DNA of 64,000 nt from Clostridium sp. (GCA_047833665.1 CP181261.1:2170889-2234888); one strand, 5' to 3'; counted from the stretch's first letter, positions 6,724 through 40,415 are shown. Notes: generated by a model not told the origin, from the sequence alone. Numbers and translations: made by a program.

Positions 6724-6785
6724 ACTTAAATGTAATGAACAAAGCAAGTTGCATTTTGTCCGTTTGATTCATCCGCATAATTTAT

Positions 6786-6872
6786 GCCGCTGTGGTGGAA
6801 TTGGCAGACACAAGGGACTTAAAATCCCTCGGTAGCGATACCGTGCCGGTTCGAGTCCGGCCAGCGGCACCA
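6786..6872 (+). tRNA. tRNA-Leu (anticodon TAA), CCA encoded
   Basis: Acceptor GCCGCTG pairs with CAGCGGC. Anticodon stem AGGGA/TCCCT with loop CTTAAAA. Long variable arm. T-arm GCCGG-TTCGAGT-CCGGC. Ends in ACCA. Confidence 0.92.
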
Positions 6873-6883
6873 TAAATAAATAC

Positions 6884-6925
6884 CTCCGGGCTCAGTAACG
6901 ATAATGAGTCCGGAGTTTTCTTTTT
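6884..6925 (+). terminator. rho-independent terminator after tRNA-Leu
   Basis: Stem ctccgggctca / tgagtccggag (one mismatch), followed by ttttcttttt. Confidence 0.7.
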
Positions 6926-7339
6926 GCCTCTATGCCAATCGTTATGGTCGCCCGAAATGGAAACGGAGCAGCGTCAGGCTGCTCCGTTTTTGGTCGCAGG
7001 ATTGAATATATGAAGAATACAATGTTACGGAAACGGCAAAAATTGCGGTAATCATATGCATTGCGTTTAAGAACCTGAGTCTTCTAAAAAAGTGAAAATA
7101 AAAAGTATGATAATGCTCAAAATTGCATCAGCATCGGCATTTACACAAATGTATATAACATGAAAAAACACTTTTTATGTCGTACAAGTGTGGTACAAAT
7201 TGAGGTCCAAATCAGTTTGATGTTCACTTGCACGTTTCATATTTGCAGCTTCTTCTGGATAATATTCATGTGAGTATAGGTGGCTGCAGGACTTATCATC
7301 GCAAGATAGGTTATACAACGGGTACACAATCTTTAGCAA

Positions 7340-13952: not shown

Positions 13953-14681
13953 TTACTTCCCACATAGCTTTACAAACATGTTGAAAACTTTCTGCATGAT
14001 GGGGTCACCCGAAGATGCCATCAGTTCCGGATGCCACTGAATACCGAGAATGAGCGGCCCTTGTGTGCTCTCAATCTCCTCTATGATACCATCCTTTGCC
14101 ACGGCGCCCGTTAAAAATCCGTCTGCAACTCTTTTGACCGCTTGATGGTGAAAGCTGTTTGTCATCACAGATTGCCCCAAAATCGGATAAAGAATACTGT
14201 TTTGACGGACCTCCACCGTATGGCTCGGGCAGGATGCCTCCGAGTCTTGATAATGATTCACGGTGCAGGTTTCTTCTCGGCGGATATCCTGATACAGTGT
14301 ACCGCCGAAAGCAACATTAATGGCCTGAATTCCTCGGCAAATTCCGAATATCGGTTTGTTCTGCGTGTGCGCCGCCCTGATGGATACAAGGTCAAGCCGA
14401 TCTCGTTCGGGGCTGAACGACCCCTGTCCCCAGCCGGGTTCTTCCCCATACAGCTGCGGCTGCAGGTCATTGCCGCCTGTCACCAGCAAACCATCCACTT
14501 TATTAACCATTTCTATAATCGTTTCATCGCTGTCCGCAGGGGGAAGAATCAGGGGCAGTCCTCCGGCATACAAAACAGACAGCACGTACGAATTATTAAC
14601 CGACACAACCTTTTTGATTTTATTAAGGTTCGGGTCGCTGCTCTGCAGACTGGAAACAATCCCTATCACAGGTCTACTCAT
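13953..14681 (-). CDS. peptidase C26 / class-I glutamine amidotransferase-like gamma-glutamyl hydrolase
   Basis: GICRGIQ nucleophile elbow and a QWHPE histidine motif. Confidence 0.8.
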   Translation of the reverse strand: MSRPVIGIVSSLQSSDPNLNKIKKVVSVNNSYVLSVLYAGGLPLILPPADSDETIIEMVNKVDGLLVTGGNDLQPQLYGEEPGWGQGSFSPERDRLDLVSIRAAHTQNKPIFGICRGIQAINVAFGGTLYQDIRREETCTVNHYQDSEASCPSHTVEVRQNSILYPILGQSVMTNSFHHQAVKRVADGFLTGAVAKDGIIEEIESTQGPLILGIQWHPELMASSGDPIMQKVFNMFVKLCGK

Positions 14682-14711
14682 AACAAAATTCCTCCGGTTC
14701 TCATCATCCGC

Positions 14712-15536
14712 TTAAAAAATACTGCCGACACTCTCCAGCTTTTCAGGCAGGTCGGCGCGGTAGTCTTCCGCATCCGGGTCAAGGCTGTTGATGACAACCC
14801 CGTGGCAGTTGTTGCCTGCCGTAGAATGAATATACCGCTGATTGCCGAGATACATGGCAACATGACCGGGGAAGAACATTAAATCGCCCGGTTTGATATC
14901 CTTAAAATCAATTGGATGCATACAAAATTGGGGCAGCATGTGTGCGTCTCGATGGATGATAATGCCGTTGAGCAGATACGCCATGGAGCAAAGCCCGCTG
15001 CAGTCAATTCCAAGCGGAGTTTTTCCGCCCCAGCGGTACTGAGTACCCAAATAACTCAGTGCGGTTTCGGTTAAAGCGCGGCGCAGTTTTGCCTCGTCTT
15101 CCTTGTTCCAATCTGTTCGGTATTCGCCGAGAAATGCACCCCACGTCCAGCCTTCCCGGCCGTCGCACAGGCGCACTTTCTGCCAGCCTTCGCTTTCTTC
15201 ATCAAGAGGACTAACCAAAGCGCCGCGCGTCAATTCCGCCACAAGGTTTCCCTGCACCTTGGGTACAGTTAAAATATCTGCATGCGCCTGCAAAACCACT
15301 TTTTTCGGGGCGGCATCCCACTGCCGAACAAGACTTTCCTCTCGGCACAGATGTTTTTCCAGCACCCAGCCTTCATACTGATAACCGGTGCGAATCAAAC
15401 ACCATTGGCCGTCCTGTTTTAAAATTTCAACTTTGTATCCGCACAGAGATTCGTCCGCAAGCTCCGATTTTTCAGACGCTTTTTGCATCATCGGTGCAAT
15501 CATCGACCGAACCAGCGCAAAATTCATTGTATTCAC
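14712..15536 (-). CDS. SH3b + NlpC/P60 cysteine peptidase (gamma-D-glutamyl-L-diamino-acid endopeptidase, YkfC-like)
   Basis: GIDCSGL catalytic Cys and GHVAMYLG His. N-terminal SH3-like region. Confidence 0.8.
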   Translation of the reverse strand: MNTMNFALVRSMIAPMMQKASEKSELADESLCGYKVEILKQDGQWCLIRTGYQYEGWVLEKHLCREESLVRQWDAAPKKVVLQAHADILTVPKVQGNLVAELTRGALVSPLDEESEGWQKVRLCDGREGWTWGAFLGEYRTDWNKEDEAKLRRALTETALSYLGTQYRWGGKTPLGIDCSGLCSMAYLLNGIIIHRDAHMLPQFCMHPIDFKDIKPGDLMFFPGHVAMYLGNQRYIHSTAGNNCHGVVINSLDPDAEDYRADLPEKLESVGSIF

Positions 15537-24174: not shown

Positions 24175-25382
24175 CTTAAATTGCAATAACAAATTGAACA
24201 CTTTCACTGGATAAAGTTATCTACGGGTTTAAAGTATAAATTGTGTCCAGTTGAGCATCAAACAGTTCCTCAGGGGTCTGATAACCTAATCGTTTCCTAG
24301 GCGTGGCGTTTATCTCGTCTGCAAACATTAAGATTTGTTCGGCGGTAAAGCCATTGATGGAGCGACCCTTTGGGATATATTTTCGTAGTATGCGATTGGT
24401 CCTCTCATTTACAGGTCGTTCCCAAGCAGAATAGGGATGAGCAAAGTAGATTGCCGTGCCTAGTTCTTCAAAGGCTGAAAATGCCGCAAACTCACTGCCG
24501 TTATCTGTGGTAATACTGCGAAACACCTGCGAAAATTTCTCGCCATACTGTTCCTTTAGCTGTTCCATGGCACTGGCAACACCGGTGGTTGTTTTGCCGT
24601 CAATTCGAATTGAAAGATAATATCCTGTCAGGCGCTCTACAATGGTAAATACAACTGCCTCACCGCTTCTTTTTCGGCCCAGTACCGTATCAGATTCCCA
24701 GTGTCCAAATGTGTTTCGCTCTGCTACCTCAGGTGGCCGCCAATCAATGGATTTCCCATTGATACGCTTAGAAAGCCGTGGTTTTCTGCGAGAATGCCTA
24801 TTTAATACCTCAGGAAGTTCAAATAGCGTGAGCGGTAATTCCCCTTTCCACAGCATATGATATAGAGTTTTTGTACATGGGATTTCCTTGGCTGGAAAAC
24901 GATGTTCGCTTCGGGCCCGCCCTACGCACTCATCAAAAGACCAATTATGCTTACGAACCTTTTTAACCATCCAACGGATGAAGTCGGAGTTCCTGGATAC
25001 CGTTCTAGGGCGATGGCAACGACTGCGATTCGCTTTGTAGACTGCAGCTCCACGTTTGGCTGAGTAGCCGGGTTTGCGACCTCGGCCGGAGTATTCCGGT
25101 GTGCCACGTCGTAGTTCATAGCCCACGGTAGAGGGGCTGCAATTGATTGCGCGAGCAATCTTTCGATTGCTAAATCCCATCTTCTTTAACTGTTGGATTG
25201 CGCCACGCTCTTCTGCTTTAAGATGCTGTCCCCTCTTGCGTTCTTCGATCTTTATGATAGAATGGTTCTTGTCCATAGTGTTCAGGCCTTTCTGTCAGTA
25301 TTTAGTGTGGTAACTTTATCCTAACAGTTCCCTGTGCGCTATGGAATCTTTTTATGTGTTCAATTTGATTTTACAATCTACC
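24175..25382 (-). mobile_element. IS30-family insertion sequence (1208 bp)
   Basis: Subterminal IRs (taaattgcaataacaaattgaacac versus the reverse complement of gtgttcaatttgattttacaatcta). Flanked by the 13-bp direct repeat tatcaaaaacgaa (24162-24174 and 25383-25395). Confidence 0.85.
24221..25276 (-). CDS. IS30-family DDE transposase
   Basis: 351 aa. HTH region followed by HWESDTV, TDNGSEF and NERTNRILRKY. Confidence 0.9.
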   Translation of the reverse strand: MDKNHSIIKIEERKRGQHLKAEERGAIQQLKKMGFSNRKIARAINCSPSTVGYELRRGTPEYSGRGRKPGYSAKRGAAVYKANRSRCHRPRTVSRNSDFIRWMVKKVRKHNWSFDECVGRARSEHRFPAKEIPCTKTLYHMLWKGELPLTLFELPEVLNRHSRRKPRLSKRINGKSIDWRPPEVAERNTFGHWESDTVLGRKRSGEAVVFTIVERLTGYYLSIRIDGKTTTGVASAMEQLKEQYGEKFSQVFRSITTDNGSEFAAFSAFEELGTAIYFAHPYSAWERPVNERTNRILRKYIPKGRSINGFTAEQILMFADEINATPRKRLGYQTPEELFDAQLDTIYTLNP

Positions 25383-26949: not shown

Positions 26950-28236
26950 ATTAGGCTACGTTTAATAGTATCTGAATAGATTTTGGATTTAAGTATGCTC
27001 TGGAAACAGACCAGTCTTCCGCATATTCCATGAGACATGTTGTTACCAGACGTAGATAGGAATCCGGATTAGGGAATATTCCTACTACGCTGGTTCTGCG
27101 GCGGATTTCCTTGTTCAGCCGTTCCAGCATATTAGTTGAAGAAATTTTGCGGGCATCAAGTTCCGGAAAAGCATAGAAGGCTAGAGAATCTTCCAGTCCA
27201 TCTTCCAGGAATTCGATTGCTTTTGGAAAGCGTTTTCCATATTGTTCTGATATTTGCTCCGCGCGCTGTCTAGCTATTTCAGCGGAGGGTGCCAACCAAA
27301 TTTCTTTTAACTGAGCCGCAAAGGACTCTTTTTCCTTCTGGGGTACATGAGCTAAAATATTTCGCATGAAATGGACTTTGCATCGTTGCCAAGAGGCTCC
27401 CGGAAAACTCTCACGGATGGCTGCAATCAGCCCTTTATTCGCGTCTGAAACCACCAGAAGCGGTGTTTTCAGTCCACGATCTAAAAGACTTTGAAACAAT
27501 TGAGAATAACTTTCTTTTGATTCATCTAGCATTGGCTCTACGGCGAGGATATCCCTATGCCCCTGTTCATTGACGCCGCAAACTACCATCACAGCCATGC
27601 TGACGACCCGGCCATCCATACGAATTTTTTCATACAGTGCATCTGTCCAAATGACAGGATAGCGACCCGTCAGAGGCCGGCTGCGGAAGTACTGTACCTG
27701 CTCATTAAGGCCTTTCGTCATTTCACTGACTTGACTGCGAGAAAGATTTTCAATTCCAAGACTGCGGGCTAGTTTCTCCATCTTTCGCGTAGATACACCC
27801 TGCACAAACGCTTCCTGAACCACTTGAATCAGCGCTGCTTCACTGCGCTTGCGTTCTGTTACGAAAAACGGGATATAGCCCTGATTTCGGAGTTTTGGTA
27901 CCATCAGATACATCGTCCCCATACGAGTATCCAGTCGACGCGGCCGATAGCCGCAGCGGTAATCACGGCGGGATGGATTGTGTGCATTCTTTTCCGCGCC
28001 AATAATACCGGAGACCTCTGCTTCCATCAGACGGGTACACAGCCATTCCAGCATCGACAGCATTGGATCCGGCTGCGCCATACATTTTAGTAGCAATTCT
28101 GTCAAATCTGTGGTATTCTTTTTGTGAGTCATTGGGTATCTCTCCTTTTTTGAATGTTTTCTCACCATTCATTTTATCGGAGTCCCAATGACTTTTCTAT
28201 ACCTTTATGAAATTGCGAACTTTATTGTACTCTATC
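26905..28236 (-). mobile_element. intact IS256-like insertion sequence
   Basis: Complete transposase plus both conserved termini (tagtgtcaagggaagttcgcaat... and ...ttgcgaactttattgtactctatc), which are shared by the relics elsewhere in the window. Exact ends are accurate to about 10 bp. Confidence 0.8.
26951..28132 (-). CDS. IS256-family (Mutator-type) transposase
   Basis: MDGRVVSMAVMVVCGVNEQGHRDILA and LERLNKEIRRRTSVVGIFPN motifs. The start was set at MTHKKNT (28132), which has an AAGGAGAG RBS. The ORF track extends to 28168. Confidence 0.9.
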   Translation of the reverse strand: MTHKKNTTDLTELLLKCMAQPDPMLSMLEWLCTRLMEAEVSGIIGAEKNAHNPSRRDYRCGYRPRRLDTRMGTMYLMVPKLRNQGYIPFFVTERKRSEAALIQVVQEAFVQGVSTRKMEKLARSLGIENLSRSQVSEMTKGLNEQVQYFRSRPLTGRYPVIWTDALYEKIRMDGRVVSMAVMVVCGVNEQGHRDILAVEPMLDESKESYSQLFQSLLDRGLKTPLLVVSDANKGLIAAIRESFPGASWQRCKVHFMRNILAHVPQKEKESFAAQLKEIWLAPSAEIARQRAEQISEQYGKRFPKAIEFLEDGLEDSLAFYAFPELDARKISSTNMLERLNKEIRRRTSVVGIFPNPDSYLRLVTTCLMEYAEDWSVSRAYLNPKSIQILLNVA

Positions 28237-29196: not shown

Positions 29197-29493
29197 TTAT
29201 CCCTGCGAAGTATATATTGCATCAAGCCTTGTGGGAATACTTTCATCACCATAAGGTACTTCCTTAATCAGTTTATCATAATAACGGCTCATAAAAGCAT
29301 TGCCCTCTTTTGTCAGAAGAGAATCATTTAGTGAAACATTGGCAAAATCATTGAGTTCCAAAACTTCTAGGCCATCATTATTAAGATAGTGATGATCTTT
29401 CAGCCACTCGAATACGAGCTTAAAATGTTTGATAACTGTTTGTTTTGACACCCCGCCGTCGATCTGCCAATCAGCTTTGTCGTAGATTTTCAC
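29197..29493 (-). CDS. 98-aa protein, last gene of the candidate system (possible immunity/partner of the nuclease)
   Basis: GTG start 2 nt after the upstream stop, with an AGGAG RBS inside the upstream gene. Acidic soluble protein with no motif I can name. Confidence 0.6.
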   Translation of the reverse strand: MKIYDKADWQIDGGVSKQTVIKHFKLVFEWLKDHHYLNNDGLEVLELNDFANVSLNDSLLTKEGNAFMSRYYDKLIKEVPYGDESIPTRLDAIYTSQG

Positions 29494-29495
29494 AA

Positions 29496-30074
29496 TCAGT
29501 CTCTCCTTTCAATATGTGTGGTAACACCTTCTGGAATTTCCGCCAGTGAACCGTCCGACATTTTAATGTAGTTACCCCCTCTTGCGCGTATTCTCTGCTC
29601 TTTGGAAGACTGTTCCGTTTTATCCGCTGTTTTGGAAGTTACTTCAATGGAATCAATAACTTTTCCATCTTTCACTACAACAAAATCGATCCTTCGCGCT
29701 TCACCAGTTTCGGGATCCTTTACGATATTTCCGTCTTTGTCACGGAGATATGCTTCGGAAATAATCGTATGGGGCGGTGAAGGATACTGTTCTTCCAGTT
29801 CTCCTCTCACCTCGTTTTCTCGAGCAAGTCCGTCCATTTTATTTTTGATAGGAAGATTTATTTCATGTACATCATCCGTTGTTTCTAACGGTGAATGATG
29901 CTTATTCTCAATAGAAAGATCTGCTTCCTGCACATCCTCAACAGTTATTTCCAATGGTTGATCATACTCACTCATTGGCTTATCAAACACCTTGTTTTTC
30001 GCCAACTTGCCGAGCGGGCACTCTGAAAATCGCTTTACTGCAGTCTCGGTGACTTCTTTCAAAGCAAAATTCAT
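29496..30074 (-). CDS. 192-aa protein with a C-terminal PD-(D/E)xK-like (restriction-endonuclease-fold) domain
   Basis: The pattern GLARENEVRGELEEQY ... ARRIDFVVVKDGKVIDSIEVTSK resembles the G..E / D / ExK layout of Hjc/Mrr-type nucleases, although the K is shifted. The N-terminal acidic half contains an internal repeat (EDVQEADLSIENK / DDVHEINLPIKNK). ATGA overlap with the upstream gene. Confidence 0.6.
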   Translation of the reverse strand: MNFALKEVTETAVKRFSECPLGKLAKNKVFDKPMSEYDQPLEITVEDVQEADLSIENKHHSPLETTDDVHEINLPIKNKMDGLARENEVRGELEEQYPSPPHTIISEAYLRDKDGNIVKDPETGEARRIDFVVVKDGKVIDSIEVTSKTADKTEQSSKEQRIRARGGNYIKMSDGSLAEIPEGVTTHIERRD

Positions 30075-33000
30075 ATTTTAACACATCTTTCTTTTACGTA
30101 ATCCACCCATTGCATATATAACCTCTTTCTAAATTCCACTTCTTCTTGACCCATGCTAAAGTCTTTCATAAAGCACTGGTTGATGGCAAGAACAACACTA
30201 TCGGCAGCATCTGGAATAAACTGACGCACTATTTTTGCAAGTTTCGCAGTTAACTCGGAGTTGTCAGAGGAATTTATGATACAATTTTCTACGTGTGATC
30301 GAACACCAAAAATATCTGTGATACACCGAGAAAGTTGTTGGAAATTAGTCTTATCCCACATTGAAGGTCTGCCATCCGCTTTAAACTTAGTAAATTGTTG
30401 CTCAATAAACTCGCGGTTACTGGAAGACAATCCGAGCCAATCTATACCGCGTTCTATTTTGTTTACATCAAAATCCAGCCGTTCTTTTACTCTGCCTTGA
30501 ATTAAGAAAAGTAGCAGTTGTTTCCGCAAATTGGCAGTATCAGCTTCTGCAATACTCACCTCGGTATGATATGGCTGTTCGGATATGCTGCACTTGTTTA
30601 TCTTTACCAACACCGGCTCAACCCAATCATTCTGATAAACGGCAGCTACACCACGTTTAAGTTTTGATAACTCCTCTATCTGCTCTTGATTAAGGCCTGC
30701 ACCTAGTCCAACAAGTTCACGGTCACTTTGCTCCGGCAAGCGCAAGATTATCTTTGTATTGGTATTCCGAATCACTGACATATCCAAAAGTCCCGGTGAT
30801 TGGTCGGCAATTATGAACCCCTCGCCATAGGTCCGCATTTCCGCTATGGAATTGGACAGCAACTCCACCGATTTGCCCAACAGATTTGAACTTTCAGATA
30901 ATTGCTGCGTAGATGTGCGCTTAAGGAGATTATGTGCCTCCTCGAGGACGGTAATATGTGTAAGTGGGCTGTTAGCTTTACCGGAAGCCATCCGATATTC
31001 GTTCAGCCTCATAACAAGCAGCCCCATAATCAGCGACTTCGTTTCTGTCGAACCAACACGACTCAAATCCACAATCGCACTTTTATCAAACAATTCGCTA
31101 TCTCTTAAGTCATTATTGCAGAAAATCAGGCCGTTTAATCCATTAGTCAGAGAACGAACCCGAGTAAGCAGAGCACCTGCGTAATCACCTTTGCTTTCCG
31201 CTGAATATTTAGACTCGTTTATAACATTTTCAATTTGCTCCAACAAATCCGCAAAATTTGGGAATACATCCCCTCTGGGATTTTCTGACAAAGCAATATT
31301 CCATCCTGCCGCAATATAAGCCCTTTCCATTGCTTCCTTTAATATCGCAGGCATCGCGGCATACATCGGCCAACATACATTAAAAATTTCAACTAACCTG
31401 TCTAAATGTTCCAAAACGTGGATATCCGATGGAAAACGGAACGGATTAATTCTTAGTAATTCTGACTTCTTTGGATTTGTACCATAAACCGCCACATCGG
31501 GAAATTGCCCGAACACGTTCTTATATTCACCTTTTGCAGGTTCAATCACCAAAAATGGGATATTGTACACATTCCTCAACTGGTTTAAAATTTCGTATAC
31601 CGTATTACTCTTGCCGGAGCCTGTTGAGCCGGTAATAAACGTATGCATCGTGAGGGAATCGCGGTCAAGGCGAACCTCTGTATCATTCTCTTTTCCCATA
31701 CTGAACACTTTACCAAGAATAAAATCATGTCCACCGTCGCACCGATTGTATTTCACAACCTCTTTACCGAAATCAGCGTGCTCAATAACAGGAAAACCGC
31801 ATACAGATTTTCTCGGAAGTCCCATTTGAATTGCAAGTTCGTTGCCGCTGATAAGAGATGATGCAGTAACGGGCACATTTGCCGATTTTGAACGGTATTG
31901 AAACACAGGGTGAATAAAGTTCGTTATGTATTCACGGAGCAACGGCAGTTGCTTTTTATTCTGCCGCCCCCAAAAGTTAATGGCAGACGTTTCAACGCCG
32001 GATTTTTCGCCTTTCATAAGTGCTTTATAAGTTCCTGCCGCCATTTCGGCGGTTTCTTGACTGTCAGACAGAAAATATGCCGCGCACTCCCACATACCGA
32101 GACTTTCACACTCTTCTATGCGCTTTAACTGCAAATCAATTCGTTCCAGCGTATCGATAAGTGTTTTATTTTGCATAGTCAGCTGCATATGATTGGACGT
32201 ACCGGTAGTAAGTCCTCTCGTTTGGGTATAATTTTCACTCCTGCTTTCGCTGGTGGAACTCGATTCCCCTTTCGTTTCAGACTGGTTTTCAGACCAATTC
32301 TCCGAAGCGGATGTTCCTTTTGTTTTGGAGGATGGATTTATTGCGTTTAAACCGATATTTCCTGCAGCAATAGCAGCGGCTGCAGCTAAACTTGCACCGC
32401 CCGTCAGCGGGGCAGTAACGATGCTTGCTACACCGAGCAGCGCTCCACCTACACCTTTCGCGATGGCAGCGGCAGTATTCGGTTTGGTGGTAGATTCATT
32501 TTCTGATCTCCCTGTGGAATGACTTGTTCCTGTTTGTACGGAAGTGTTCGTGGAATGGGAAGTGCCGAACATTGTTCCTTTTGACAAAGCGTTAGAAGTG
32601 CTGATAGCAGTATTTGTACCGTAACTTAATTGCATATTGGCAAATGGCGACAGCTGTGTATATATCGTTTCATAGGCACGGCGTATTTCCGCCAATTGTT
32701 CGGGCGATGTACTCTTAGCCAACACAATAGCAGTATAGCGCTGCCCATGCATGGCAAGTGCAAGTTTTTCAAGTCCTTGTATAAACTTTTTGTTGTCTTT
32801 GAACTCTTCATCCTTATTTTGGGCAACGCAAGATACGGCAGCGATATTCTTTGATGGAATATCAGCAAGAAAAGCCTCCGCCTGCGGGTCAAGCAGATCT
32901 GCTGTTTTGACTCCGGGGAACTGCCCGCAAAGCGCGTTCCGCAACGTATCTTTCAGGGACTTTGTAGTTCGCAAATCATCAAGAGAACGGACACCCATAT

Positions 33001-33379
33001 AAAAATCCGTCTTTTGTCCGTTGCTGTCCATGATAAGGAACACACCGCAATTCAGATTTTGCACCGCATTAAACACGGAAGCAAACTTGTATGTTGAATA
33101 TTCGTCGTTCTGATAAACCATTTCGGTTATCTTAAACAAACGAATTTTGCTGATTTTTTTCAAGCTATCATCCAGTGGAATAATTTCCAAATCTGTAAGT
33201 CGAGTAAGATAGTTTTTAAGAACAATGTCATCCACAAGCTTACCTGCTTCGGCAAGCTGCGCTTGGAGTGAATCATAGCTGGGCATATCATTTTCCATTT
33301 GGTTTTGCGGGAGGCAATCATTATGCTCTATTTCAGCTCTTTCTGGCTTTCTCTCCATGATATCCGCAAATTCGTTCAT
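30071..33379 (-). CDS. ~1100-aa membrane-anchored HerA/FtsK-type (DUF87-like) P-loop ATPase
   Basis: Numbering follows the 1107-aa ORF-track translation. Walker A GSTGSGKS is at aa 589-596 and the HerA-style Walker B VLEEAHNL at aa ~816-823, followed by IIADQSPGLLD..NT.TKIILRL. A Gly/Ala-zipper hydrophobic hairpin (AAAIAKGVGGALLGVASIVTAPLTGGASLAAAAAIAAGNIG, aa ~308-348) is flanked by S/T/N-rich low-complexity segments. The preferred start is the ATG at 33379 (GGAG 9 nt upstream, 1 nt after the upstream stop); the ATG at 33394 is an alternative. Confidence 0.8.
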   Translation of the reverse strand: MNEFADIMERKPERAEIEHNDCLPQNQMENDMPSYDSLQAQLAEAGKLVDDIVLKNYLTRLTDLEIIPLDDSLKKISKIRLFKITEMVYQNDEYSTYKFASVFNAVQNLNCGVFLIMDSNGQKTDFYMGVRSLDDLRTTKSLKDTLRNALCGQFPGVKTADLLDPQAEAFLADIPSKNIAAVSCVAQNKDEEFKDNKKFIQGLEKLALAMHGQRYTAIVLAKSTSPEQLAEIRRAYETIYTQLSPFANMQLSYGTNTAISTSNALSKGTMFGTSHSTNTSVQTGTSHSTGRSENESTTKPNTAAAIAKGVGGALLGVASIVTAPLTGGASLAAAAAIAAGNIGLNAINPSSKTKGTSASENWSENQSETKGESSSTSESRSENYTQTRGLTTGTSNHMQLTMQNKTLIDTLERIDLQLKRIEECESLGMWECAAYFLSDSQETAEMAAGTYKALMKGEKSGVETSAINFWGRQNKKQLPLLREYITNFIHPVFQYRSKSANVPVTASSLISGNELAIQMGLPRKSVCGFPVIEHADFGKEVVKYNRCDGGHDFILGKVFSMGKENDTEVRLDRDSLTMHTFITGSTGSGKSNTVYEILNQLRNVYNIPFLVIEPAKGEYKNVFGQFPDVAVYGTNPKKSELLRINPFRFPSDIHVLEHLDRLVEIFNVCWPMYAAMPAILKEAMERAYIAAGWNIALSENPRGDVFPNFADLLEQIENVINESKYSAESKGDYAGALLTRVRSLTNGLNGLIFCNNDLRDSELFDKSAIVDLSRVGSTETKSLIMGLLVMRLNEYRMASGKANSPLTHITVLEEAHNLLKRTSTQQLSESSNLLGKSVELLSNSIAEMRTYGEGFIIADQSPGLLDMSVIRNTNTKIILRLPEQSDRELVGLGAGLNQEQIEELSKLKRGVAAVYQNDWVEPVLVKINKCSISEQPYHTEVSIAEADTANLRKQLLLFLIQGRVKERLDFDVNKIERGIDWLGLSSSNREFIEQQFTKFKADGRPSMWDKTNFQQLSRCITDIFGVRSHVENCIINSSDNSELTAKLAKIVRQFIPDAADSVVLAINQCFMKDFSMGQEEVEFRKRLYMQWVDYVKERCVKI

Positions 33380-33380
33380 A

Positions 33381-33965
33381 CTATTTCGCTCCATTCGTCA
33401 CAACCATTGCAACAGCGGCACCGGCGGCAGCACCGATGACAGCACCGGCTACCACGGCAGTGCTTGCCGCCGCAGCCACCACTGCCCCTGCTGCTGCACC
33501 GACTGCCGCTCCACCGGCAATTTTTGCACCGCGATACGTACCATTTAGCTGATCGCAGCGCTTTTGTTCTTGGTAACTTCTGTGTTGAATTTGCTGATGG
33601 CTGCCAGATGTTCTCCTCTTAGCGTGATCGGTTCCATTTGACAACGAAGTTTTCTGACCAGTGGAAGTAACAGGGTGCAAATATCTGACCACTTCTTTGA
33701 GATGCTCAATACGTTCGTGGGAAAAATTGTTAACTACTTGAACCATCAGCTTATTCATATAATCATCGTTCCAATGGGCTTTATCGAGTTGGAATTCACG
33801 TCCATCGTGCGGATCATAAAGTCCCTTCACATTTCGGGCAAGTTTTTCCATCTCATCAAACTCCGCAAAGGTCGGATCAACTAACAAGCTGTTTTTCATC
33901 ATGATGCGGATGCTTTTGATATCACCATTTGACACTGCGTTTTTAATGGACTCTTCAACTGTCAT
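33381..33965 (-). CDS. 194-aa protein: soluble helical N-domain + C-terminal Gly/Ala-zipper membrane segment
   Basis: The start at 33965 (MTVEESIK) has a strong AGGGAGGGTG RBS and lies 13 nt after the upstream TAG. The C-terminal ~45 aa are GAKIAGGAAVGAAAGAVVAAAASTAVVAGAVIGAAAGAAVAMVV. Confidence 0.75.
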   Translation of the reverse strand: MTVEESIKNAVSNGDIKSIRIMMKNSLLVDPTFAEFDEMEKLARNVKGLYDPHDGREFQLDKAHWNDDYMNKLMVQVVNNFSHERIEHLKEVVRYLHPVTSTGQKTSLSNGTDHAKRRTSGSHQQIQHRSYQEQKRCDQLNGTYRGAKIAGGAAVGAAAGAVVAAAASTAVVAGAVIGAAAGAAVAMVVTNGAK

Positions 33966-33978
33966 AGATACACCCTCC

Positions 33979-36279
33979 CTAAATTTCAAGAATAGAGTTG
34001 ACTTTACCTTTGATTTCGTCAAGCCATGCCAGTTTCCTCTCGCACTCTTTGATACGTTGCTCGGCTTTTGCCTTGTCGTTGGCGTAGCTCTCTAATTCCT
34101 TAAGTTTGTTATCGAGGATTTTGTCAAGGCGTTTGAATTCACCATCAAAATATTTGGCAATCTTGTTTGCTTGCTGCAGTGCATATAAAAGAGCTGCGGA
34201 ACCATTGTTAAATAAACTCTTTTCGATTGGCATGAAAAAGTTGCGTACCATTTCAGAGGCGTCGACAAATTCAACAGTCTTGTATTTTTGACGGTAGTAA
34301 CCTTTTTCTTGGAACCACGTCCACGGCTTGTACCATTTCTTGTCTGTATTTTTAACCCATTCCTTACCATCTTCGACACGCTTTTCTCGAATGAACTCCG
34401 CTAATTGGAAGTTTTCAGCATTCACGCTTCCGCCCATTAACTTCAAAGGATCAATTTTTGCACCGTTAAAGCCATCTATGTTGATGTCCTCAGCCAACCC
34501 TTCCAATTTTTTCTTGTATTCTTCAAGCAATGCTTCGCTTGTTTTAATAAGAGTTGTTCTAATCAGGTCGTCCAGTTCCGACTCAAAATATGGCTCTAGA
34601 CTTTCTGCAAACCGTTTAAGTCTATTGATTTCTATATCAATATCAGCGATATCAATCTCTATATCACGAAAGCTATCAATTTTCTGTGTAATCTGATTTT
34701 GGAATTTTTCAAGAATTCCTTCTACAATTTCTGGCGATTCCTGTTTGACTTTTCGCAAAGCTGTGTCAACAGCAACTTTGAATTTCTTTGCTGATTCACC
34801 ATCATCAATTTTCTTGCGAATTAAAGCAATTTGCTTTGACAGTTTCTCATTCTCGTCACAGTTTTTCGCAAGTTCACGCTTGGTTTTCTCATAACAATCC
34901 ACTTCGTCCAGTTTATGGATAAATGTATCCACAATGTTCTTAATCTTTGCCGTCTTAGCATACTTTTGCACATACTGGCGAATCGCAGCTTCCAACGATG
35001 GAATGCCTGTATGTATGAGGGCTTCATCATAGATGGCATTTTCACTTTTGCTTGCTTTTGCTTTAGTTAATTGTAGCGCGATATCGTTGCGAATACCGGT
35101 GGGTAAGGGTGCGTAAGTTTCAAAGTGCATGGTTTCGTTTCGATTGAGTTTTCTAGCCTTTACATACGCTTCGTCTCTTGTGTCCTCATCAACATCTGCA
35201 CCGCTTGTGATAAGACGAAAATCGAGGGCTGGCAGCGCGGCAGCGGGAAATAAGTTCGGGTTGTCAATACCGTGCGTTTTCAGATACGCACGCACGCGTT
35301 CCAAAGTCTGTTCCGTATCGCCATCTTCTTTCTTGCGGCCATCAAGTTTATTGATGACAAAGATAAAACGGTCTTTGGACTGCTTGCCGCCGACAGACAT
35401 GCTCTCGGCTACGCGTTTGAGCAAGGTGTAGTCGTCATCTGTACCGAACTCGCCTGTCATAATATAAAGGACCAATGCTTTTGATGATTTGCTGAGAAAT
35501 TCGCTTTGCACTTTTTTGTGGTGCGGGTCGCGGGAGTTGTTCGGTCCGGGTGTGTCAATCAGCACGAGCGATACGTCCTCGGATGACACAAACGGAATAT
35601 TTCCTTCAGCTCGTATTTCAGACACGTTTTCATCAGCGTTCAGCCGTTCCATTGTAGAATAGTTTAACGCTTCGTGCGTTTCTGTGAGCTGTCCCTCTTT
35701 ATTGTAAACTTTGGCTTTCCACGGCACGTCCTTGTCATTGGTATCTTTTATCCTCGTAATGATTGCCGTACACGCCTCTTGTTTGGAAGGCATCAGTTTA
35801 GTACCGAGCATAGCATTTATCAGTGTGGATTTGCCGGCGCTCATCGTCGCAACAACGCACACCTCAAAATCTTTGCTTTTTGCATGTTCAAACGCACTGA
35901 TAATTTGCTTGTCACGCAGTTCGTCAAACGGTCCCTCTTGAATTTCCTTAAACACATTATCAATCAAGGCTTCTTTGTCTGCCGTTTCTTTAGCGGGCTT
36001 ATGTTCAAGCTTGAAGGTCAGCTCATGCCGTTTTTGAGCTTCGGTAAAAGCAGATTTTAAATCCTCATAGTCGAGCAAAGTGCCATGAAATGTCACTTCA
36101 AATTCCGTATCGTTATACTCATCGATCAGAATACGCGGCAAATCTTCTACCCATTCTTGCAAGTGTGTGCCTTTGGCGGCTTTTTCGCCAAGTTGGCTGT
36201 TTTGCGCTAATTGATTACCGTCTACTGTAATTTCAGTTTCAAGTTTATAAGGATTGTATTTTATAAAGACTTTTTTCAT
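33979..36279 (-). CDS. dynamin-like GTPase (bacterial DLP), 766 aa
   Basis: G1 ATMSAGKSTLINAMLG (aa ~144-159), G2 region KQEACTA, G3 LIDTPGPN, G4 VINKLD. A long coiled-coil/stalk-like C-terminal half. ATGA overlap with the upstream gene. Confidence 0.85.
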   Translation of the reverse strand: MKKVFIKYNPYKLETEITVDGNQLAQNSQLGEKAAKGTHLQEWVEDLPRILIDEYNDTEFEVTFHGTLLDYEDLKSAFTEAQKRHELTFKLEHKPAKETADKEALIDNVFKEIQEGPFDELRDKQIISAFEHAKSKDFEVCVVATMSAGKSTLINAMLGTKLMPSKQEACTAIITRIKDTNDKDVPWKAKVYNKEGQLTETHEALNYSTMERLNADENVSEIRAEGNIPFVSSEDVSLVLIDTPGPNNSRDPHHKKVQSEFLSKSSKALVLYIMTGEFGTDDDYTLLKRVAESMSVGGKQSKDRFIFVINKLDGRKKEDGDTEQTLERVRAYLKTHGIDNPNLFPAAALPALDFRLITSGADVDEDTRDEAYVKARKLNRNETMHFETYAPLPTGIRNDIALQLTKAKASKSENAIYDEALIHTGIPSLEAAIRQYVQKYAKTAKIKNIVDTFIHKLDEVDCYEKTKRELAKNCDENEKLSKQIALIRKKIDDGESAKKFKVAVDTALRKVKQESPEIVEGILEKFQNQITQKIDSFRDIEIDIADIDIEINRLKRFAESLEPYFESELDDLIRTTLIKTSEALLEEYKKKLEGLAEDINIDGFNGAKIDPLKLMGGSVNAENFQLAEFIREKRVEDGKEWVKNTDKKWYKPWTWFQEKGYYRQKYKTVEFVDASEMVRNFFMPIEKSLFNNGSAALLYALQQANKIAKYFDGEFKRLDKILDNKLKELESYANDKAKAEQRIKECERKLAWLDEIKGKVNSILEI

Positions 36280-37586
36280 AAACTTCCTCCAAAAAGTATT
36301 TTTTCCAGGCCGTAAAGCCCACTTTTCTTGCTCATTTGGATAAGTTCTGAGTCATTTGCATTGCTATGTACTCCATCAACATATTTTGACAGATCATACT
36401 CCGCTCTGCTGAACTTCTTGACAAACAAGTCGTAATCATCCTGTTCGTCTTCTGTCATTTGTTCTCCGTTTGCCTTTAGTTTAATAAGAAAGGCAAAGTA
36501 GGATGAAAGCGGACAAATCAGCGGCTTTTTGAATCCTATGTTGCATAAATCTTTTTTCACTCCTTCAATGCTTTCTTTTATGGAATCGTCCGTACTCTTG
36601 AAGTCATCAAGTTTATTGAGCACGAACACTACCTTCTCTTCAGGTACATTTTCAAACACCCATTGCAGATGTACCTTTTCTTCATCTGTTCCAAGTTTGT
36701 TGGCGTTTAAAATGTAGATAAGAGTATTATAGCGTTCCTCTTTCAACGCTGTTCGTGTAATCTTCCTGTGCTGTCGGTTTATTGCGGAGTTGACCCCCGG
36801 TGTGTCAATAATGCAAACGCGATTAATGGGAACGGTTGTCCGAAAATATGATGCGACACTGCTTACCATTGAACGGTCGACATTTGCGAGATCATTATAG
36901 TTTGCATTAAGATTGAGCGACGATGTGAACAAATGAACGGTATTATCTTCGAAAAGCTTATTATAGAGGTAGCACAGGTTTCCTGTACAGGCTTCCTGCG
37001 ATGTCCTTGTCAACGGTTTGCCGATAATTGCGTTTATCAGTGTTGACTTGCCGGCGCTCATATTTGCAGTCACGATAAAGCGTGTTTCTGACTGCGACGC
37101 AAACCTTTTGTTAGATCGGAATTGTTTGACTAATTCAGCAGTAAAGGCTATTTTTGTCGGAATCTGCTCGTCGGTAAATAACGCGGTCAGTAAAACGTCT
37201 AACTGAGCAATTTGCCGCTTATTCAAATACCCTTTAAGGCAATCTGCTCCTCTTCGGATTTTACTTTCATCAAGAAGAATCAAAGCGATATCGCAAAGCA
37301 GCCAATAACGATACTTCTTCCTCCAAGGCCTTATTCTGCTGTTGATGACAGAGCGAACGACACCTTCACGCTCTTTGTCGGTCAATTTGAGGTCTTTAGC
37401 GTTGCCGGTTAAAAAAGTACAATACTGTGCAAGTCGGCCATCGGTATACACATCATGGTCCGCACATTTCCTGATAAGCGATTTCAGTGCGATAAAATAT
37501 TGCATTTTTAATTTCGGCTTAGCTTTTTTCATAGGATGAGCTTCAAGTGTAATTGCTTCTATAAAATTTGGACAATGAATAGTCAT
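36276..37586 (-). CDS. dynamin-like GTPase, short form, 436 aa, with a distinct ~170-aa N-terminal region
   Basis: G1 ANMSAGKSTLINAIIG (aa ~174-189), G2 region SQEACTG, G3 IIDTPGVN, G4 VLNKLD. GAAGGTG lies 11 nt upstream of the ATG at 37586. Confidence 0.8.
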   Translation of the reverse strand: MTIHCPNFIEAITLEAHPMKKAKPKLKMQYFIALKSLIRKCADHDVYTDGRLAQYCTFLTGNAKDLKLTDKEREGVVRSVINSRIRPWRKKYRYWLLCDIALILLDESKIRRGADCLKGYLNKRQIAQLDVLLTALFTDEQIPTKIAFTAELVKQFRSNKRFASQSETRFIVTANMSAGKSTLINAIIGKPLTRTSQEACTGNLCYLYNKLFEDNTVHLFTSSLNLNANYNDLANVDRSMVSSVASYFRTTVPINRVCIIDTPGVNSAINRQHRKITRTALKEERYNTLIYILNANKLGTDEEKVHLQWVFENVPEEKVVFVLNKLDDFKSTDDSIKESIEGVKKDLCNIGFKKPLICPLSSYFAFLIKLKANGEQMTEDEQDDYDLFVKKFSRAEYDLSKYVDGVHSNANDSELIQMSKKSGLYGLEKILFGGSL

Positions 37587-37644
37587 ATAGCTTATAGCAC
37601 CTTCATTTTTCTTGATTCCAAAACTGCAATCATTCGGTAAACTT

Positions 37645-37883
37645 AAATTTTAACCTTTCATATTCAGTAATTGAAACGCCTTAGTGCCACTATAGTTAAT
37701 TTTATAATCCAATATTTTCCGAAACTTTATCCAACCTAAATTATATTGTAAATAATTAGGGTGGACAGAAATTGGGATGCTTTCATCTTTTCGGAAAAAT
37801 GCCACATTGTACAAATAGAATACGTTACCTACTTTCCAGTAAGTAGGTAAATATAAAACCACCGTGTTGAAAGGTTAAAATTT
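37645..37883. repeat. 16-bp perfect inverted repeats bracketing 207 bp, ~60 bp upstream of the operon start
   Basis: aaattttaacctttca (37645-37660) and its exact reverse complement tgaaaggttaaaattt (37868-37883). Confidence 0.85.
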
Positions 37884-38059
37884 CTTATAATTATACCAAA
37901 AAATTGTAAATTATGCTAGTAAGAAAGTCGACTTTTATCCTTTTTTAGCATAAACAGTCGAAAAAAAGGTTCCGCACTAGTGTCGCAGCGCGGGATCAAC
38001 ATTTAATTTCCAGCAGAATACTTATTTTACATCTTTCAATTTATTGTTTCACGACATCA

Positions 38060-38170
38060 AACTTCGCATTTTTCACATATTCAATGATTCAACAAAAAAT
38101 GGAGCAGCCTAGCGCCGCTCCATTTGGTATTTCCGTTTTGAGTAACCCTAACTATTGACATAGAACCCAT
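38060..38170 (+). mobile_element. ISL3 right-end fragment
   Basis: ...ttcacatattcaatgattcaacaaaaaatggagcagcctagcgccgctccatttggtatttccgttttgagtaaccctaactattgacatagaaccc aligns to 54838-54935. Confidence 0.8.
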
Positions 38171-38643
38171 TAATTTAAACATATAAAATCACCGTCGCCT
38201 TCACGGTTCCTTAAAAATTAAACACCACTAGAGTAAGCCTTGAAGTTTGAGGTAATGTGGTTACAACATCTGTCATTTTAAATTTCTTTTCAATAAAATG
38301 TATTTATCAAAACAGCAATATTACTGCACCTGTGCACCGATATGTATATATTGCCGTAATGACCCTTCTAAAATTAAAGCCATATAACTCTTGACTTGTG
38401 AAAGATGATTGTAGTATTATTCTTATAAATCAATTAGGCATCCTAATAATACTATATTTGTAATATAATGTCAATCAAAGATGTAGCAGCATTAAGATGC
38501 TTCATTTTTAGGATACCATAACTATTGATATATGATATAAAATCCTTTTTGCCTATTCGTGACGTCCCAATATTGTGAGTTGTCACAAAAAGCCCTACTA
38601 ACTTGTCTTTATGTGTAGAAGGCAAAATAAGGGAGGTTTTCTT

Positions 38644-38928
38644 ATGATTTAAAAAATTATTTACTTTACAGCGAGTACTCTAATTGTTTGTTCGGGCTTA
38701 TGTCTTGCTCTGGCCGCAAGCACACCCAAGCTGCTTAAAAGACCTTTGTCAATATATGCTAATTATGTGTACATAAATAGGACGCACAACACTTTAAATA
38801 TTTCCAATGGAACAGCTTATATCTTCGAATATGTGCAAAGGACAACTTATAAAACGGAAATTTATGTGAATAACAAATGCAACAAATCGGGTCTGTATAT
38901 ATCTACGGAGAATATAAACATGCATTAA
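38644..38928 (+). pseudogene. small secreted/lipoprotein-like gene with an in-frame TAA at codon 3
   Basis: GGGAGG RBS 7 nt upstream of the ATG at 38644. Reads ATG ATT TAA AAA ATT..., then continues in frame as KIIYFTASTLIVCSGLCLALAAS (signal-peptide-like) into ORF 38746..38928. Confidence 0.55.
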
Positions 38929-38953: not shown

Positions 38954-39660
38954 ATGTCAAAGAAAAAATGGTAAGTTTAATTTTGACCTGCGCGCTATTT
39001 GTGACCATTTCTATTCCGGCATTTGCAGTGGACAATTCTGATCTGAAAACAAGTCATTCGACAACAGATAGTACTGGTTTTATGCAAGGGCAAGAAAATC
39101 TTGAATATTATCTCGCTGCATATAATGCCCTTTATAAAAGACCTACTTATTTGTATGATGCTGCATCTGTATCACAAGCTGACGTGAATACATACTATGC
39201 GGCGCTTCAAGGTATTAACGATGAAACCTTTGATGACTATTTTGAAAGTGTTAGATGGATAACAAGAGATGGTGTAGTATCGTTAAGTATCCAGCCGACA
39301 TATTTACTTACTGGTGCTGCTAATCCTAATGGAAATGTACTCATAGCAAGGGCATTTCACGCTTTTTCATGATTGGAAGATCGGTTCTCAAGTGACTATA
39401 AGTAGGATCATACTGATTCTATGGCGGCACAATTCCATTGTCATGTCTTACTGGCGGGAGATTTCAAGACTCCTTGGAAAATCGAACCTTTTAGGACAGA
39501 ATCCAATTTAATGAAAGTTATGGCCGCAAAATGCAATCCCGGTGGTGGAAGCGTGGATGAATTTCTGTATCTTCTGCCTATATATTATTGTACTAAATCG
39601 GCTGTTGCACAGTTGTCACTTTGCAACAGCTTTCATGTGCAGAGGAAGTGGTTAATTTGA
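38954..39660 (+). pseudogene. secreted protein gene with an A6-tract frameshift and two in-frame stops
   Basis: AGGAGG RBS, then the ATG at 38954 gives MSKKKW*. A +1 A in the A6 run (38963-38968) would give MSKKKMVSLILTCALFVTISIPAFA, a canonical signal peptide. ORFs 38968..39372 and 39421..39660 share one frame and are separated by a TGA and a TAG. Confidence 0.6.
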
Positions 39661-40415
39661 AAATTAATAGGTATATAACACTAATATGTACAGTCATAAT
39701 ATGTAGCTTTTCTTTTATATCCTGTAGTGCAAAAACTCAGGACGTAACAGAAAAAACAGAATCCAATACATTTATTTCAATCGATAATATAGATTTTTTT
39801 GATACAGCAAAAGATGTATATGTATACTTTGGCAGACCAACATGTCCGGATTGTCAGAAATTTGAGTCAGGACTCAAGCAAGTTATGAATGAGACTGATA
39901 TTCCTGTTTACTATTTTAACACGTTGTATTGGAAAGACCATAAAAGGTATAATGAAATCTTAAAAAAATACCATATTACGGCGGTTCCTTCACTCGTAAA
40001 TATTCAATCAGGTAACCATTATATAACTTTGGATTTGGAACATTACAGTAATTCGGATAATAGTCAAAAAGAAATTAAGGATTTTCTTAGTAATTCAAAC
40101 ACTGCTTCAAACAATAATTTATTTGATACAATTATTTATTATTGTACGGCCTTTTTATGTTTTAACTTAATCTTGATTATTATTCGCAGGATAAAATTGA
40201 AAACTGTAGATATACCCATTATGCTAATGAACTCCGCTTTTATATTATTTACTTCTTTGTTAAGTATCTGGCAAGAAGGAATCTATTTGGATCAATATAA
40301 TTTGTCTGGGAACGGCTATTCCACCGTCTTGGTTTTGGTTAACATAGCACTTTTCGTGGTTATAGTGATTCTTTCTCTGCTGCACAATTATAAGTTCCCA
40401 AAGGATACATGTTGA
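39657..40415 (+). CDS. thioredoxin-fold lipoprotein with a C-terminal multi-TM region
   Basis: Lipobox FISCS and the CxxC motif in VYFGRPTCPDCQKFE. The C-terminal half is hydrophobic. A TTG start at 39657 with an AGAGGAAG RBS is preferred; the ORF track starts at 39621. Confidence 0.65.
   Translation: MKINRYITLICTVIICSFSFISCSAKTQDVTEKTESNTFISIDNIDFFDTAKDVYVYFGRPTCPDCQKFESGLKQVMNETDIPVYYFNTLYWKDHKRYNEILKKYHITAVPSLVNIQSGNHYITLDLEHYSNSDNSQKEIKDFLSNSNTASNNNLFDTIIYYCTAFLCFNLILIIIRRIKLKTVDIPIMLMNSAFILFTSLLSIWQEGIYLDQYNLSGNGYSTVLVLVNIALFVVIVILSLLHNYKFPKDTC

Follow-up and report, generated by a model that had tools for sequence, protein, structure and literature searches.

A probable polymorphic toxin-immunity locus with a dynamin-like and HerA-type gene core in Clostridium sp.

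The six-gene operon and its products

The locus analysed here lies in a 64,000-nt stretch of DNA from Clostridium sp. (GCA_047833665.1 CP181261.1:2170889-2234888), hereafter called the window, with positions counted from its first letter. Between positions 29197 and 37586, the open reading frame (ORF) listing of the window gives six consecutive ORFs on the minus strand, named g1 to g6, which encode two dynamin-like proteins (DLPs), a small membrane protein, a HerA-type ATPase and two further products that vary from locus to locus. ATGA overlaps, checked in the sequence of the junctions, join g1 to g2 (36276-36279) and g4 to g5 (30071-30074); gaps of 13, 1 and 2 nt separate g2 from g3, g3 from g4 (with the ATG at 33379) and g5 from g6, respectively. 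GGAG-type ribosome-binding sites stand upstream of g2, g3, g4 and g6. The mechanical ORFs start earlier for both g3 (TTG at 34022) and g4 (ATG at 33394); the corrected starts, at 33965 and 33379, give products of 194 and 1102 aa, the latter start also being that of a database protein with 100% identity (P0001). A preliminary description of this DNA had proposed a six-gene operon with these overlaps and gaps, and products of 194 and about 1100 aa for g3 and g4, all of which is borne out. The operon is real: g4 has more than 1700 homologues (E ≤ 1e-5), many of them 70-82% identical in Paenibacillus, Clostridium perfringens, Turicibacter and Lachnospiraceae, and the g1-g4 order is kept in other genomes, which excludes chance.

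The first gene, g1 (36276..37586), encodes a short dynamin-like GTPase of 436 aa (Pfam Dynamin_N, 3.5e-13), in which a region of about 160 aa without assignment precedes a GTPase domain with the motifs ANMSAGKST (G1), DTPG (G3) and NKLD (G4). The product of g2 (33979..36279), a long DLP of 766 aa (Dynamin_N, 3.9e-17), has a conserved N-terminal domain (residues 1-130), a GTPase domain and a helical stalk/C-terminal region. The two GTPase domains are paralogous (72 bits) and their G1, G3 and G4 motifs are intact. At the level of PDB sequence searches, g1 gave only marginal GTPase-domain matches (E ≥ 0.008), and the sole match of g2 was Nostoc BDLP (2j68).

Concerning the membrane components, g3 (33381..33965) encodes a tail-anchored protein of 194 aa, as judged from hydropathy, with a cytoplasmic helical N-domain carrying a conserved RIMMKNSLL...NFSxER motif and a C-terminal Gly/Ala-zipper transmembrane (TM) hairpin at residues 146-193. 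It had no match in Pfam and none of significance in the PDB sequence search. The g4 product (30071..33379; 1102 aa) is a membrane-anchored ATPase of the HerA/FtsK superfamily (DUF87, 5.5e-14; TrwB_AAD_bind, 2.1e-5). Its N-terminal globular domain (about residues 40-255; 32630..33277) has no Pfam match and shows many invariant columns. A phmmer search of 1.84 billion cluster representatives with this domain returned 769 matches, 477 of them at E ≤ 1e-10, and among the 150 matches listed, full-length proteins of about 1000-1230 aa carry the domain near their N-terminus, so that it can be taken as a signature of this ATPase family. Ser/Thr/Asn-rich low-complexity arms (residues ~256-405; 32180..32629), recognised by composition and hydropathy, surround a Gly/Ala-zipper TM hairpin (residues 307-352; 32339-32476). 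The HerA-type P-loop ATPase domain follows (30575..31717), with Walker A GSTGSGKS at residues 589-596 (31607-31630) and Walker B/VLEEAH at residues 816-821. According to hydropathy, the g3 and g4 hairpins are the only TM-like segments of the whole operon, and a two-helix hairpin would place both halves of g4 on the cytoplasmic side. All PDB sequence matches of g4 belong to the HerA clade (8yho, 4d2i); in Foldseek, the ATPase part of the weak g4 model resembled HerA (4d2i), VirB4 (4ag5) and Cag-beta.

The two DLPs and the HerA-like ATPase of the preliminary description are thus recovered as Dynamin_N and DUF87 matches, with both GSTGSGKS and VLEEAH present, and hydropathy agrees with the Gly/Ala zippers it had placed at the g3 C-terminus and in the centre of g4. 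As for the g4 arms, they partially match the NCBIfam model NF033849 ('ser_rich_anae_1', a serine-rich protein family), which suggests that the Ser/Thr/Asn-rich arms are a family trait; the low-confidence AlphaFold model draws them as long beta-hairpins.

The product of g5 (192 aa) begins with a bipartite leader (residues 1-40; 29955..30074), found in alignment A1 and by the leader hidden Markov model (HMM) described below. Leaders of the g5 type read F/L-K-E-V-T-E ... R-F-(A/S)-(D/E)-(S/C)-P-L-G-K and, after 10-17 residues, D-K/Q-P-L/M. An acidic linker and a C-terminal domain (residues ~75-192) make up the remainder (29496..29954). In the AlphaFold model, the predicted local distance difference test (pLDDT) score exceeds 90 over residues 80-192, the leader and linker being mostly of low confidence. 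The best Foldseek matches are all PD-(D/E)xK nucleases (R2 RLE, Bax1, McrC, TnsA, Cas4 and AdnAB), with weak E-values (best 1e-2, probability 0.99), and the invariant residues E86, D130, E144 and K152 are consistent with a PD-(D/E)xK catalytic core. No Pfam family was found for this domain (NERD reached only E=0.096), and the PDB sequence search gave nothing significant for g5 or g6. A PD-(D/E)xK-fold nuclease is predicted for this domain with moderate confidence; the restriction-endonuclease fold suggested earlier is seen in the structural comparison, at weak E-values, and finds no backing in Pfam. The last gene, g6 (29197..29493), encodes a cytoplasmic protein of 98 aa, the putative cognate immunity protein, which co-varies with the g5 toxin class.

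Conserved core and variable cassette

With g4 as query, a scan of one genome per species found 528 relatives, from which 80 loci were retained together with 10-kb flanks. The six window proteins were compared with these loci by tblastn, and collinearity was scored in the 63 loci with at least 4.6 kb upstream. The order g1-g2-g3-g4 was collinear in 56 of the 63. For most of the 80 loci, the alignment covers 99-100% of the g2 protein (32-68% identity), and g3 sits between g2 and g4 in nearly all of them. It is duplicated in some subfamilies, one copy being soluble (without a TM segment), and its anchor in relatives is either a Gly-zipper hairpin or, in E. coli, Treponema and locus L093, a plain TM helix. 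Full-length homologues of g5 and g6 were found in only about seven of the 80 loci. Conserved synteny of all six families, proposed earlier as a check, therefore holds for g1-g4 and fails for g5-g6.

By record title, the core occurs in Bacillota (Clostridia, Bacilli, Negativicutes), Synergistota, Fusobacteriota (Leptotrichia), Bacteroidota (Prevotella) and Pseudomonadota (Succinivibrio and a betaproteobacterium), as well as in Veillonella; the same gene plan is present in Spirochaetota, i.e. at least six phyla in all. Plasmid copies follow it too. In Lactococcus cremoris 158, plasmid p158B carries, in order, a WYL regulator, two DLPs, two g3 paralogues, the ATPase, an 'HNH endonuclease' and a hypothetical protein; E. 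coli TW10590 plasmid pTW10590_133 carries two DLPs, a hypothetical protein, the ATPase, an 'HNH/ENDO VII nuclease' and 'SMI1/KNR4', and Treponema saccharophilum plasmid pTS2 shows the same plan. In E. coli, the locus was found in one of 5426 complete genomes (TW10590 only). As for phages, the collection searched held only two unannotated g4-related fragments, and a phage-encoded origin was dropped on that ground.

In about 60 loci, g4 is directly followed by a gene for a protein of 160-350 aa (d1) and one for a protein of 90-150 aa (d2), the positions held by g5 and g6 in the window. All-against-all BLAST sorted the d1 C-termini into 13 clusters, six of them with a single sequence, and the d2 classes match them. 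Pfam assigned d1 representatives to WHH, Colicin-DNase, LHH, HNH, Endonuclea_NS_2, Gln_amidase ('papain fold toxin 1') and a SprT-like metallopeptidase, and d2 representatives to SMI1_KNR4/SUKH, YezG-like, PoNi and DUF6985. Catalogues of secreted polymorphic toxins and of the corresponding immunity proteins list these families (PMC3482391, PMC3113570). With g1-g4 alone conserved and g5-g6 interchangeable, the 'nuclease and small partner' of the preliminary description are best read as toxin and immunity protein: the comparison indicates that g5 and g6 are very probably one of many interchangeable polymorphic-toxin/immunity pairs and not fixed machinery.

A leader common to d1 proteins with unrelated C-termini was found in alignment A1, where F-K-E/D-V/I-T-E is followed by (R/K)-F-A-(D/E)-S-P-L-G-K and, 10-17 residues after SPLGK, by a second motif, D-(K/S)-(P/S)-L-(A/G). 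The corresponding HMM was run against every ORF of 91 sequences, including the 64-kb window. One ORF matched in 43 of the 91 (42 loci and the window), two matching in L008, and the match was always the ORF immediately 3' of g4, in the window g5 alone. In a local test, most leader scores across toxin classes were too low, at 16-41 bits, for the library-wide threshold.

The junction between leader and toxin domain is sharp. The ATPases of L006 and L017 are 88% identical, and the toxins are of the Colicin-DNase/WHH class in one and the Endonuclea_NS_2 class in the other; their DNA homology runs from the start of g1 to 121 nt into d1, with none beyond. Similarly, between the window and either L007 or L028, which carry other toxins, DNA homology stops at 29953-29955, i.e. 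at about codon 40 of g5. Neither a Sec-like signal nor an LXG/WXG domain was found in 67 toxins; the toxins would therefore need a dedicated route. The d2 proteins are cytoplasmic.

The toxin domain of g5 has 652 homologues, about 70% identical over residues ~75-192, which are fused to several unrelated N-termini, and some of them bear 'DDNGKPYRTEDGGW...' pre-toxin repeats, as in other toxin classes. Concerning g6, a metagenome scan with its sequence alone gave nothing, and a profile of its homologues gave 31 loci, about 24 of them with a g5-type toxin gene immediately 5' of the g6 homologue. The homologue of L095-L097 belongs to a co-directional array of small genes, together with genes for Imm33 and SMI1/KNR4 proteins, and no toxin or core gene was found within 6 kb upstream of it. 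The array of L097 (3449-9304) comprises at least ten small genes, including those for the g6 homologue and for Imm33-domain, SMI1/KNR4 and TPR proteins; from its gene content it looks like an orphan immunity-gene island, as do those of L095 and L096. Such orphan homologues would be expected if the toxin came from other cells, as a protection against it. In L099 (2318-4000), a WYL regulator is directly followed by a g6-type gene, without DLP, ATPase or toxin, in what looks like a remnant locus retaining regulation and immunity only.

Variation around this plan was also seen. Three variants of the g5 domain were traced to contigs, each directly 3' of a DUF87 ATPase and with DLP genes in the locus; the core layouts were DLP, DLP, beta-helix protein, DLP, ATPase; DLP, DLP, 186-aa protein, ATPase; and four unknown genes, DLP, ATPase. 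A variant with an N-domain 28% identical is arranged as DLP, small TM protein, ATPase, WHH toxin, DUF6985 immunity protein and another DLP. Two toxin-immunity pairs are present in some loci: two leader-bearing toxins stand in tandem 3' of g4 in L008 (13285-15376), and L040 (8838-9926) has an extra metallopeptidase-like toxin and a 72-aa gene between g3 and g4. An FRG-domain gene (283-305 aa) lies downstream of the toxin-immunity pair, directly in L082 (11252-12169) and after one intervening small gene in L086 (11174-12025) and L087 (7380-8231). In the distant variant L094 (1068-13348), genes for DUF1232, two DLPs, two small proteins and a 1175-aa ATPase are followed by those for a 156-aa protein, DUF4230, YbjN and an FtsZ_C-containing protein, and no toxin-immunity pair can be recognised there. 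Some lineages may use the core for another cargo or function.

As the preliminary description had it, the DNA flanking the operon is accessory. On its 3' side, an intact IS256-family transposase lies at 26951-28168, with insertion sequence (IS) fragments adjoining; those up to 29052 are pieces of a second IS256-like copy. The 'ISL3 debris' reported at 28.4-29.1 kb also looks IS256-like, going by its sequence and by a Transposase_mut match in locus L081. Further out on this side, an IS30-like transposase (HTH_38 and rve) lies at 24221-25276. On the other side, GC content is 0.32-0.37 at 37-41 kb. The region directly upstream of g1 (37587-38900) is AT-rich (GC ~0.32), with neither a long ORF nor a WYL regulator. 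It holds two terminator-like hairpins on the operon strand (38125-38097 and 37993-37972); the yield of the promoter/terminator scan was no higher than shuffled expectation, and the scan was not used as evidence. On the plus strand, just upstream of the operon, 38968-40415 includes a gene for a 264-aa thioredoxin-fold membrane protein, listed in Pfam as PedC-like, a 79-aa ORF listed as DUF2599 (39421-39660) and a 134-aa ORF with no Pfam match (38968-39372). PedC-type proteins go along with bacteriocin export. Beyond the island, chromosomal genes follow, for oligopeptide/ABC transporters on one side and maltodextrin utilisation on the other.

A near-identical copy of the operon, with g4 100% identical, occurs on a separate contig, L081 (JGI metagenome 3300075149). 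There, g1 is broken into ORFs of 177 and 197 aa, and a 115-aa IS256 fragment stands in place of the full copy at 26951-28168 of the window (L081 coordinates noted: 5848-7104 and 14664-15011). The two strains therefore differ by a g1 frameshift and an IS insertion.

Interpretation and rival explanations

Taken as a whole, the sequence comparisons suggest that the locus is a polymorphic toxin-immunity system whose leader-tagged toxins would be exported by an undescribed DLP/HerA-type machine, a reading to which we give a probability of roughly 0.6. Within it, the roles of g5 and g6 as toxin and immunity protein can be assigned with high confidence. The role of the locus is most likely attack and not defence, probably through delivery of toxins that kill rival bacteria, and its six genes form a 4+2 unit instead of one six-part machine. 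The more specific proposal of an undescribed secretion or toxin-delivery pathway, in which a Gly-zipper-anchored HerA/FtsK motor, a tail-anchored partner and a DLP pair would export toxins with a leader of about 40 residues in both monoderms and diderms, has about an even chance of being right. The preliminary description had put forward a six-component anti-phage system with a nuclease effector, which does not agree with a core limited to g1-g4 and an interchangeable g5-g6 pair; its secondary alternative, a toxin-export module, is the reading favoured by the evidence, and its view of the locus as undescribed and conflict-related holds, which leaves its interpretation partly supported.

The following mechanism can be proposed. 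The toxin would be synthesised in complex with its immunity protein, and its leader, serving as recognition signal, would dock at the cytoplasmic face of the ATPase/g3 complex. A hexameric HerA-type P-loop motor would supply the force and thread the toxin, and might free it of its immunity protein on the way; TM hairpins of small residues, in g4 and g3, would line the passage through the membrane. The DLP pair would assemble there and use GTP to hold, reseal or remodel the membrane; once released, the toxin would kill neighbours without g6. Where a WYL regulator is present, expression would probably be induced by stress or DNA damage, in a colicin-like manner. The scheme has precedents: in T7SS (type VII secretion system), HerA-FtsK-superfamily pumps export N-terminally tagged nuclease toxins (PMC3113570), and the DLP LeoA raises toxin release in enterotoxigenic E. 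coli (ETEC) (PMC4159319).

Several points weigh against this export reading. Secretion, killing and leader recognition are all steps that we infer from sequence; the channel mechanism is among the weakest points of the reading, together with the part given to the DLPs. The full-length g4 AlphaFold model (pLDDT 48.5), built on a shallow alignment (at least 68% identity), is too poor for the channel, N-domain or hairpin to be judged. Leader similarity does rise with g4 similarity, even for pairs of loci whose toxins differ in class, which counts for the reading, but the Spearman coefficient (0.55, n=485) is uncorrected for phylogeny. Diderms (E. coli, Veillonella, Prevotella, Treponema) are among the hosts, and the loci show no sign of an outer-membrane component. 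Loci mostly carry one toxin-immunity pair, where many polymorphic toxin loci typically keep spare cassettes in long arrays. None of the toxin classes identified acts on the cell wall or in the periplasm, all of them (nucleases, deamidase, peptidase) being cytoplasmic. About 37 of the 80 loci have a WYL-domain helix-turn-helix regulator next to them, in most cases immediately 5' of g1, the window itself being without one; WYL regulators are typically reported beside phage-defence systems. Finally, DLPs (DynA, 'Dynamins') and HerA (Sir2-HerA, DUF4297-HerA) both have anti-phage precedents.

The last three of these points also speak for anti-phage abortive infection, in which the DLP/ATPase core would sense infection or a perturbation of membrane or DNA and free the leader-tethered toxin from its antitoxin, killing or arresting the infected producer. 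So do the domain-level PADLOC matches to LeoA, LeoBC and HerA, and the position of some loci among defence-like or mobile genes, such as those for an Abi protein (p158B), a NERD+UvrD protein (L084) or an SNF2/HNH helicase (L090). 'Dynamins LeoABC plus a toxin-antitoxin system' have also been called side by side on an integrative and conjugative element (ICE) of P. laudensis (PMC13335696), which may be the same kind of locus under two labels. We nevertheless regard defence, the main rival, as unlikely, given that the cargo has the full signature of polymorphic toxins: a leader, a sharp junction, unrelated toxins and co-varying SUKH, YezG and PoNi proteins. To our knowledge, this signature belongs to exported interbacterial toxins, defence effectors being usually sensor-fused and without an immunity gene. 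Moreover, orphan immunity homologues in an immunity-gene island fit only a toxin from outside, PADLOC offers neither a system nor a candidate (PDC) family for any of the six proteins as a whole, relatives are almost absent from phage genomes, and some loci lie among housekeeping genes, not in defence islands. Were defence the answer after all, a defence system with polymorphic toxin cassettes as effectors would also be new.

Release without a channel is improbable, more so than defence: the ATPase and g3 would gather the leader-tagged toxin or complex at the membrane, and the DLP pair would drive vesicles or a rupture similar to colicin lysis. DLPs do remodel, tether and fuse membranes, such a process would work in monoderms and diderms, in keeping with the host range and the lack of a visible outer-membrane component, and stress-linked control of the WYL type would resemble SOS-induced colicin release. 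Yet a HerA/FtsK/VirB4-type pump of about 1100 aa with a strictly conserved P-loop is odd for mere tethering, dynamins constrict from the cytoplasm the necks that they encircle, so that outward budding would not come naturally to them, and the loci do not share any conserved gene for a lysis or holin-like protein. Least probable by far is a role in the maintenance of mobile elements or in DNA transfer, with the toxin-immunity pair as an addiction cassette, the ATPase pumping DNA (by conjugation or as in Ced-type systems) and the DLPs assisting membrane events. The ATPase weakly matches TrwB/VirD4, VirB4 and archaeal CedD, copies lie on conjugative plasmids (p158B, pTW10590_133) and near recombinases, and near-identical cores in distant taxa point to frequent horizontal transfer. 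Against it, many loci are chromosomal, between housekeeping genes, and addiction needs neither a conserved leader co-varying with the ATPase nor orphan immunity islands. Relaxase, oriT-processing and mating-pair genes are not conserved with the core either, for which reason the conjugation or DNA-transfer reading was set aside.

If the export reading holds, the few known bacterial secretion systems would be joined by a new delivery route, frequent in Clostridia of gut and rumen and present also in Paenibacillus, on Lactococcus starter plasmids, in Veillonella and Treponema and on an ETEC plasmid. A pump of the HerA/FtsK type would then have been recruited for protein toxins a second time, independently. 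The roles of bacterial dynamin-like proteins have stayed unclear; work within a secretion machine would be a defined and testable one. The leader could serve as a portable tag for export, and the toxin/immunity repertoire would bear on how strains compete in microbiomes and in dairy starter cultures. Such loci may be mislabelled as 'Dynamins + TA' (toxin-antitoxin) by defence-annotation pipelines.

Comparison with known systems

That no named system combines these parts, as had been supposed, agrees with the searches made. Scans of the six proteins against PADLOC-DB 2.0, PHROGs and NCBIfam gave domain-level or sub-threshold matches only, with no system assigned. No description of a combination of DLP, HerA/DUF87 and polymorphic toxin was found in the full-text literature searched, subscription journals being mostly outside it. 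Dynamin is never mentioned in the 2012 survey of polymorphic toxins (PMC3482391), the 2011 SUKH paper (PMC3113570) or the 2020 paper on NTP-dependent conflict systems, and the defence screen of the lactococcal plasmidome does not cover the present locus.

The closest functional parallel is the T7SSb (EssC/YueA). It too has a membrane-anchored HerA-FtsK ATPase and N-terminally targeted toxins with variable nuclease C-termini, and behind each toxin gene stands one for cognate immunity, in many cases from the SUKH family (PMC3113570). However, EssC/YueA has three FtsK-like domains and FHA, whereas g4 has a single HerA/DUF87 P-loop domain, no FHA, and its own N-domain and central Gly/Ala hairpin. 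Targeting in T7SSb relies on a helical LXG/WXG domain of about 200 aa, in contrast to the linear leader of about 40 residues found here, and the present loci have two DLPs, with no WXG100, EssA/B, EsaA or YukD among the proteins or annotated flanks. FtsK_SpoIIIE reached only E=0.009 at the g4 P-loop, and no WXG100, LXG, EssB or YukD was found in the toxins or in the flanks of 12 loci; nor did the Pfam-annotated flanks hold any T7SS (12 loci), type IV (T4SS) or type VI (T6SS) secretion system families. As for T4SS and coupling proteins, TrwB_AAD_bind covers residues 576-630 of g4 only, the NCBIfam VirB4/TraD models score 17-18 bits on g4 vs. cut-offs above 500, and T4SS genes are not conserved in the flanks.

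Among DLP pairs (LeoABC, 'Dynamins', DynA, Campylobacter DLP1/2), the likeness lies in two paralogous Dynamin_N GTPases side by side. The literature associates such pairs with membrane tethering and repair, toxin release (LeoA) and phage tolerance (DynA). The present g1 differs in being a truncated DLP of 436 aa, and the conserved unit also has g3, g4 and a toxin pair. PADLOC LeoA matched g1 with 38 bits over profile positions 99-182 of 559, and LeoBC matched g2 with 27 bits over positions 267-453 of 601, i.e. 15-31% of the profiles; the NCBIfam LeoA/HP0731 model scored 20 bits vs. a cut-off of 325. We know of no described DLP system that includes a HerA-type ATPase, a tail-anchored partner or a toxin-immunity cassette. 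The mycobacterial iniBAC operon also combines a small Gly/Ala-rich protein (IniB) with two DLPs (IniA and IniC; PMC6715688), a resemblance that serves as a lead only; it is a cell-envelope stress operon and lacks both an ATPase and a toxin-immunity pair.

In both sequence and structure searches, the g4 ATPase fold and motifs are closest to HerA, as found in Sir2-HerA/Nezha, DUF4297-HerA and HerA-NurA. In those systems HerA is soluble and 500-700 aa long, whereas g4 is membrane-anchored and twice as long, with a TM hairpin and an extra N-terminal half of about 560 residues. Sir2, DUF4297 and NurA domains are present in none of the six proteins, and the NCBIfam HerA_antiphage models gave 43 and 35 bits on g4 vs. 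cut-offs of 800 and 850.

The cargo, finally, resembles polymorphic toxins (contact-dependent inhibition (CDI), Rhs, MuF and S8-PTS systems) in its conserved trafficking N-terminus, recombining C-terminus and downstream immunity gene, with toxin and immunity Pfam families in common and orphan immunity genes elsewhere. At the sequence level, the present loci show what defines such systems, i.e. a common leader with interchangeable toxin domains and a downstream, co-varying immunity gene. They differ in their small toxins (160-350 aa), usually one pair per locus, and in a trafficking module and apparatus that match none of those catalogued; S8-PTS, for example, relies on a signal peptide and a subtilase. 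As far as is known, the apparatus is thus new in kind and the cargo of a known kind.

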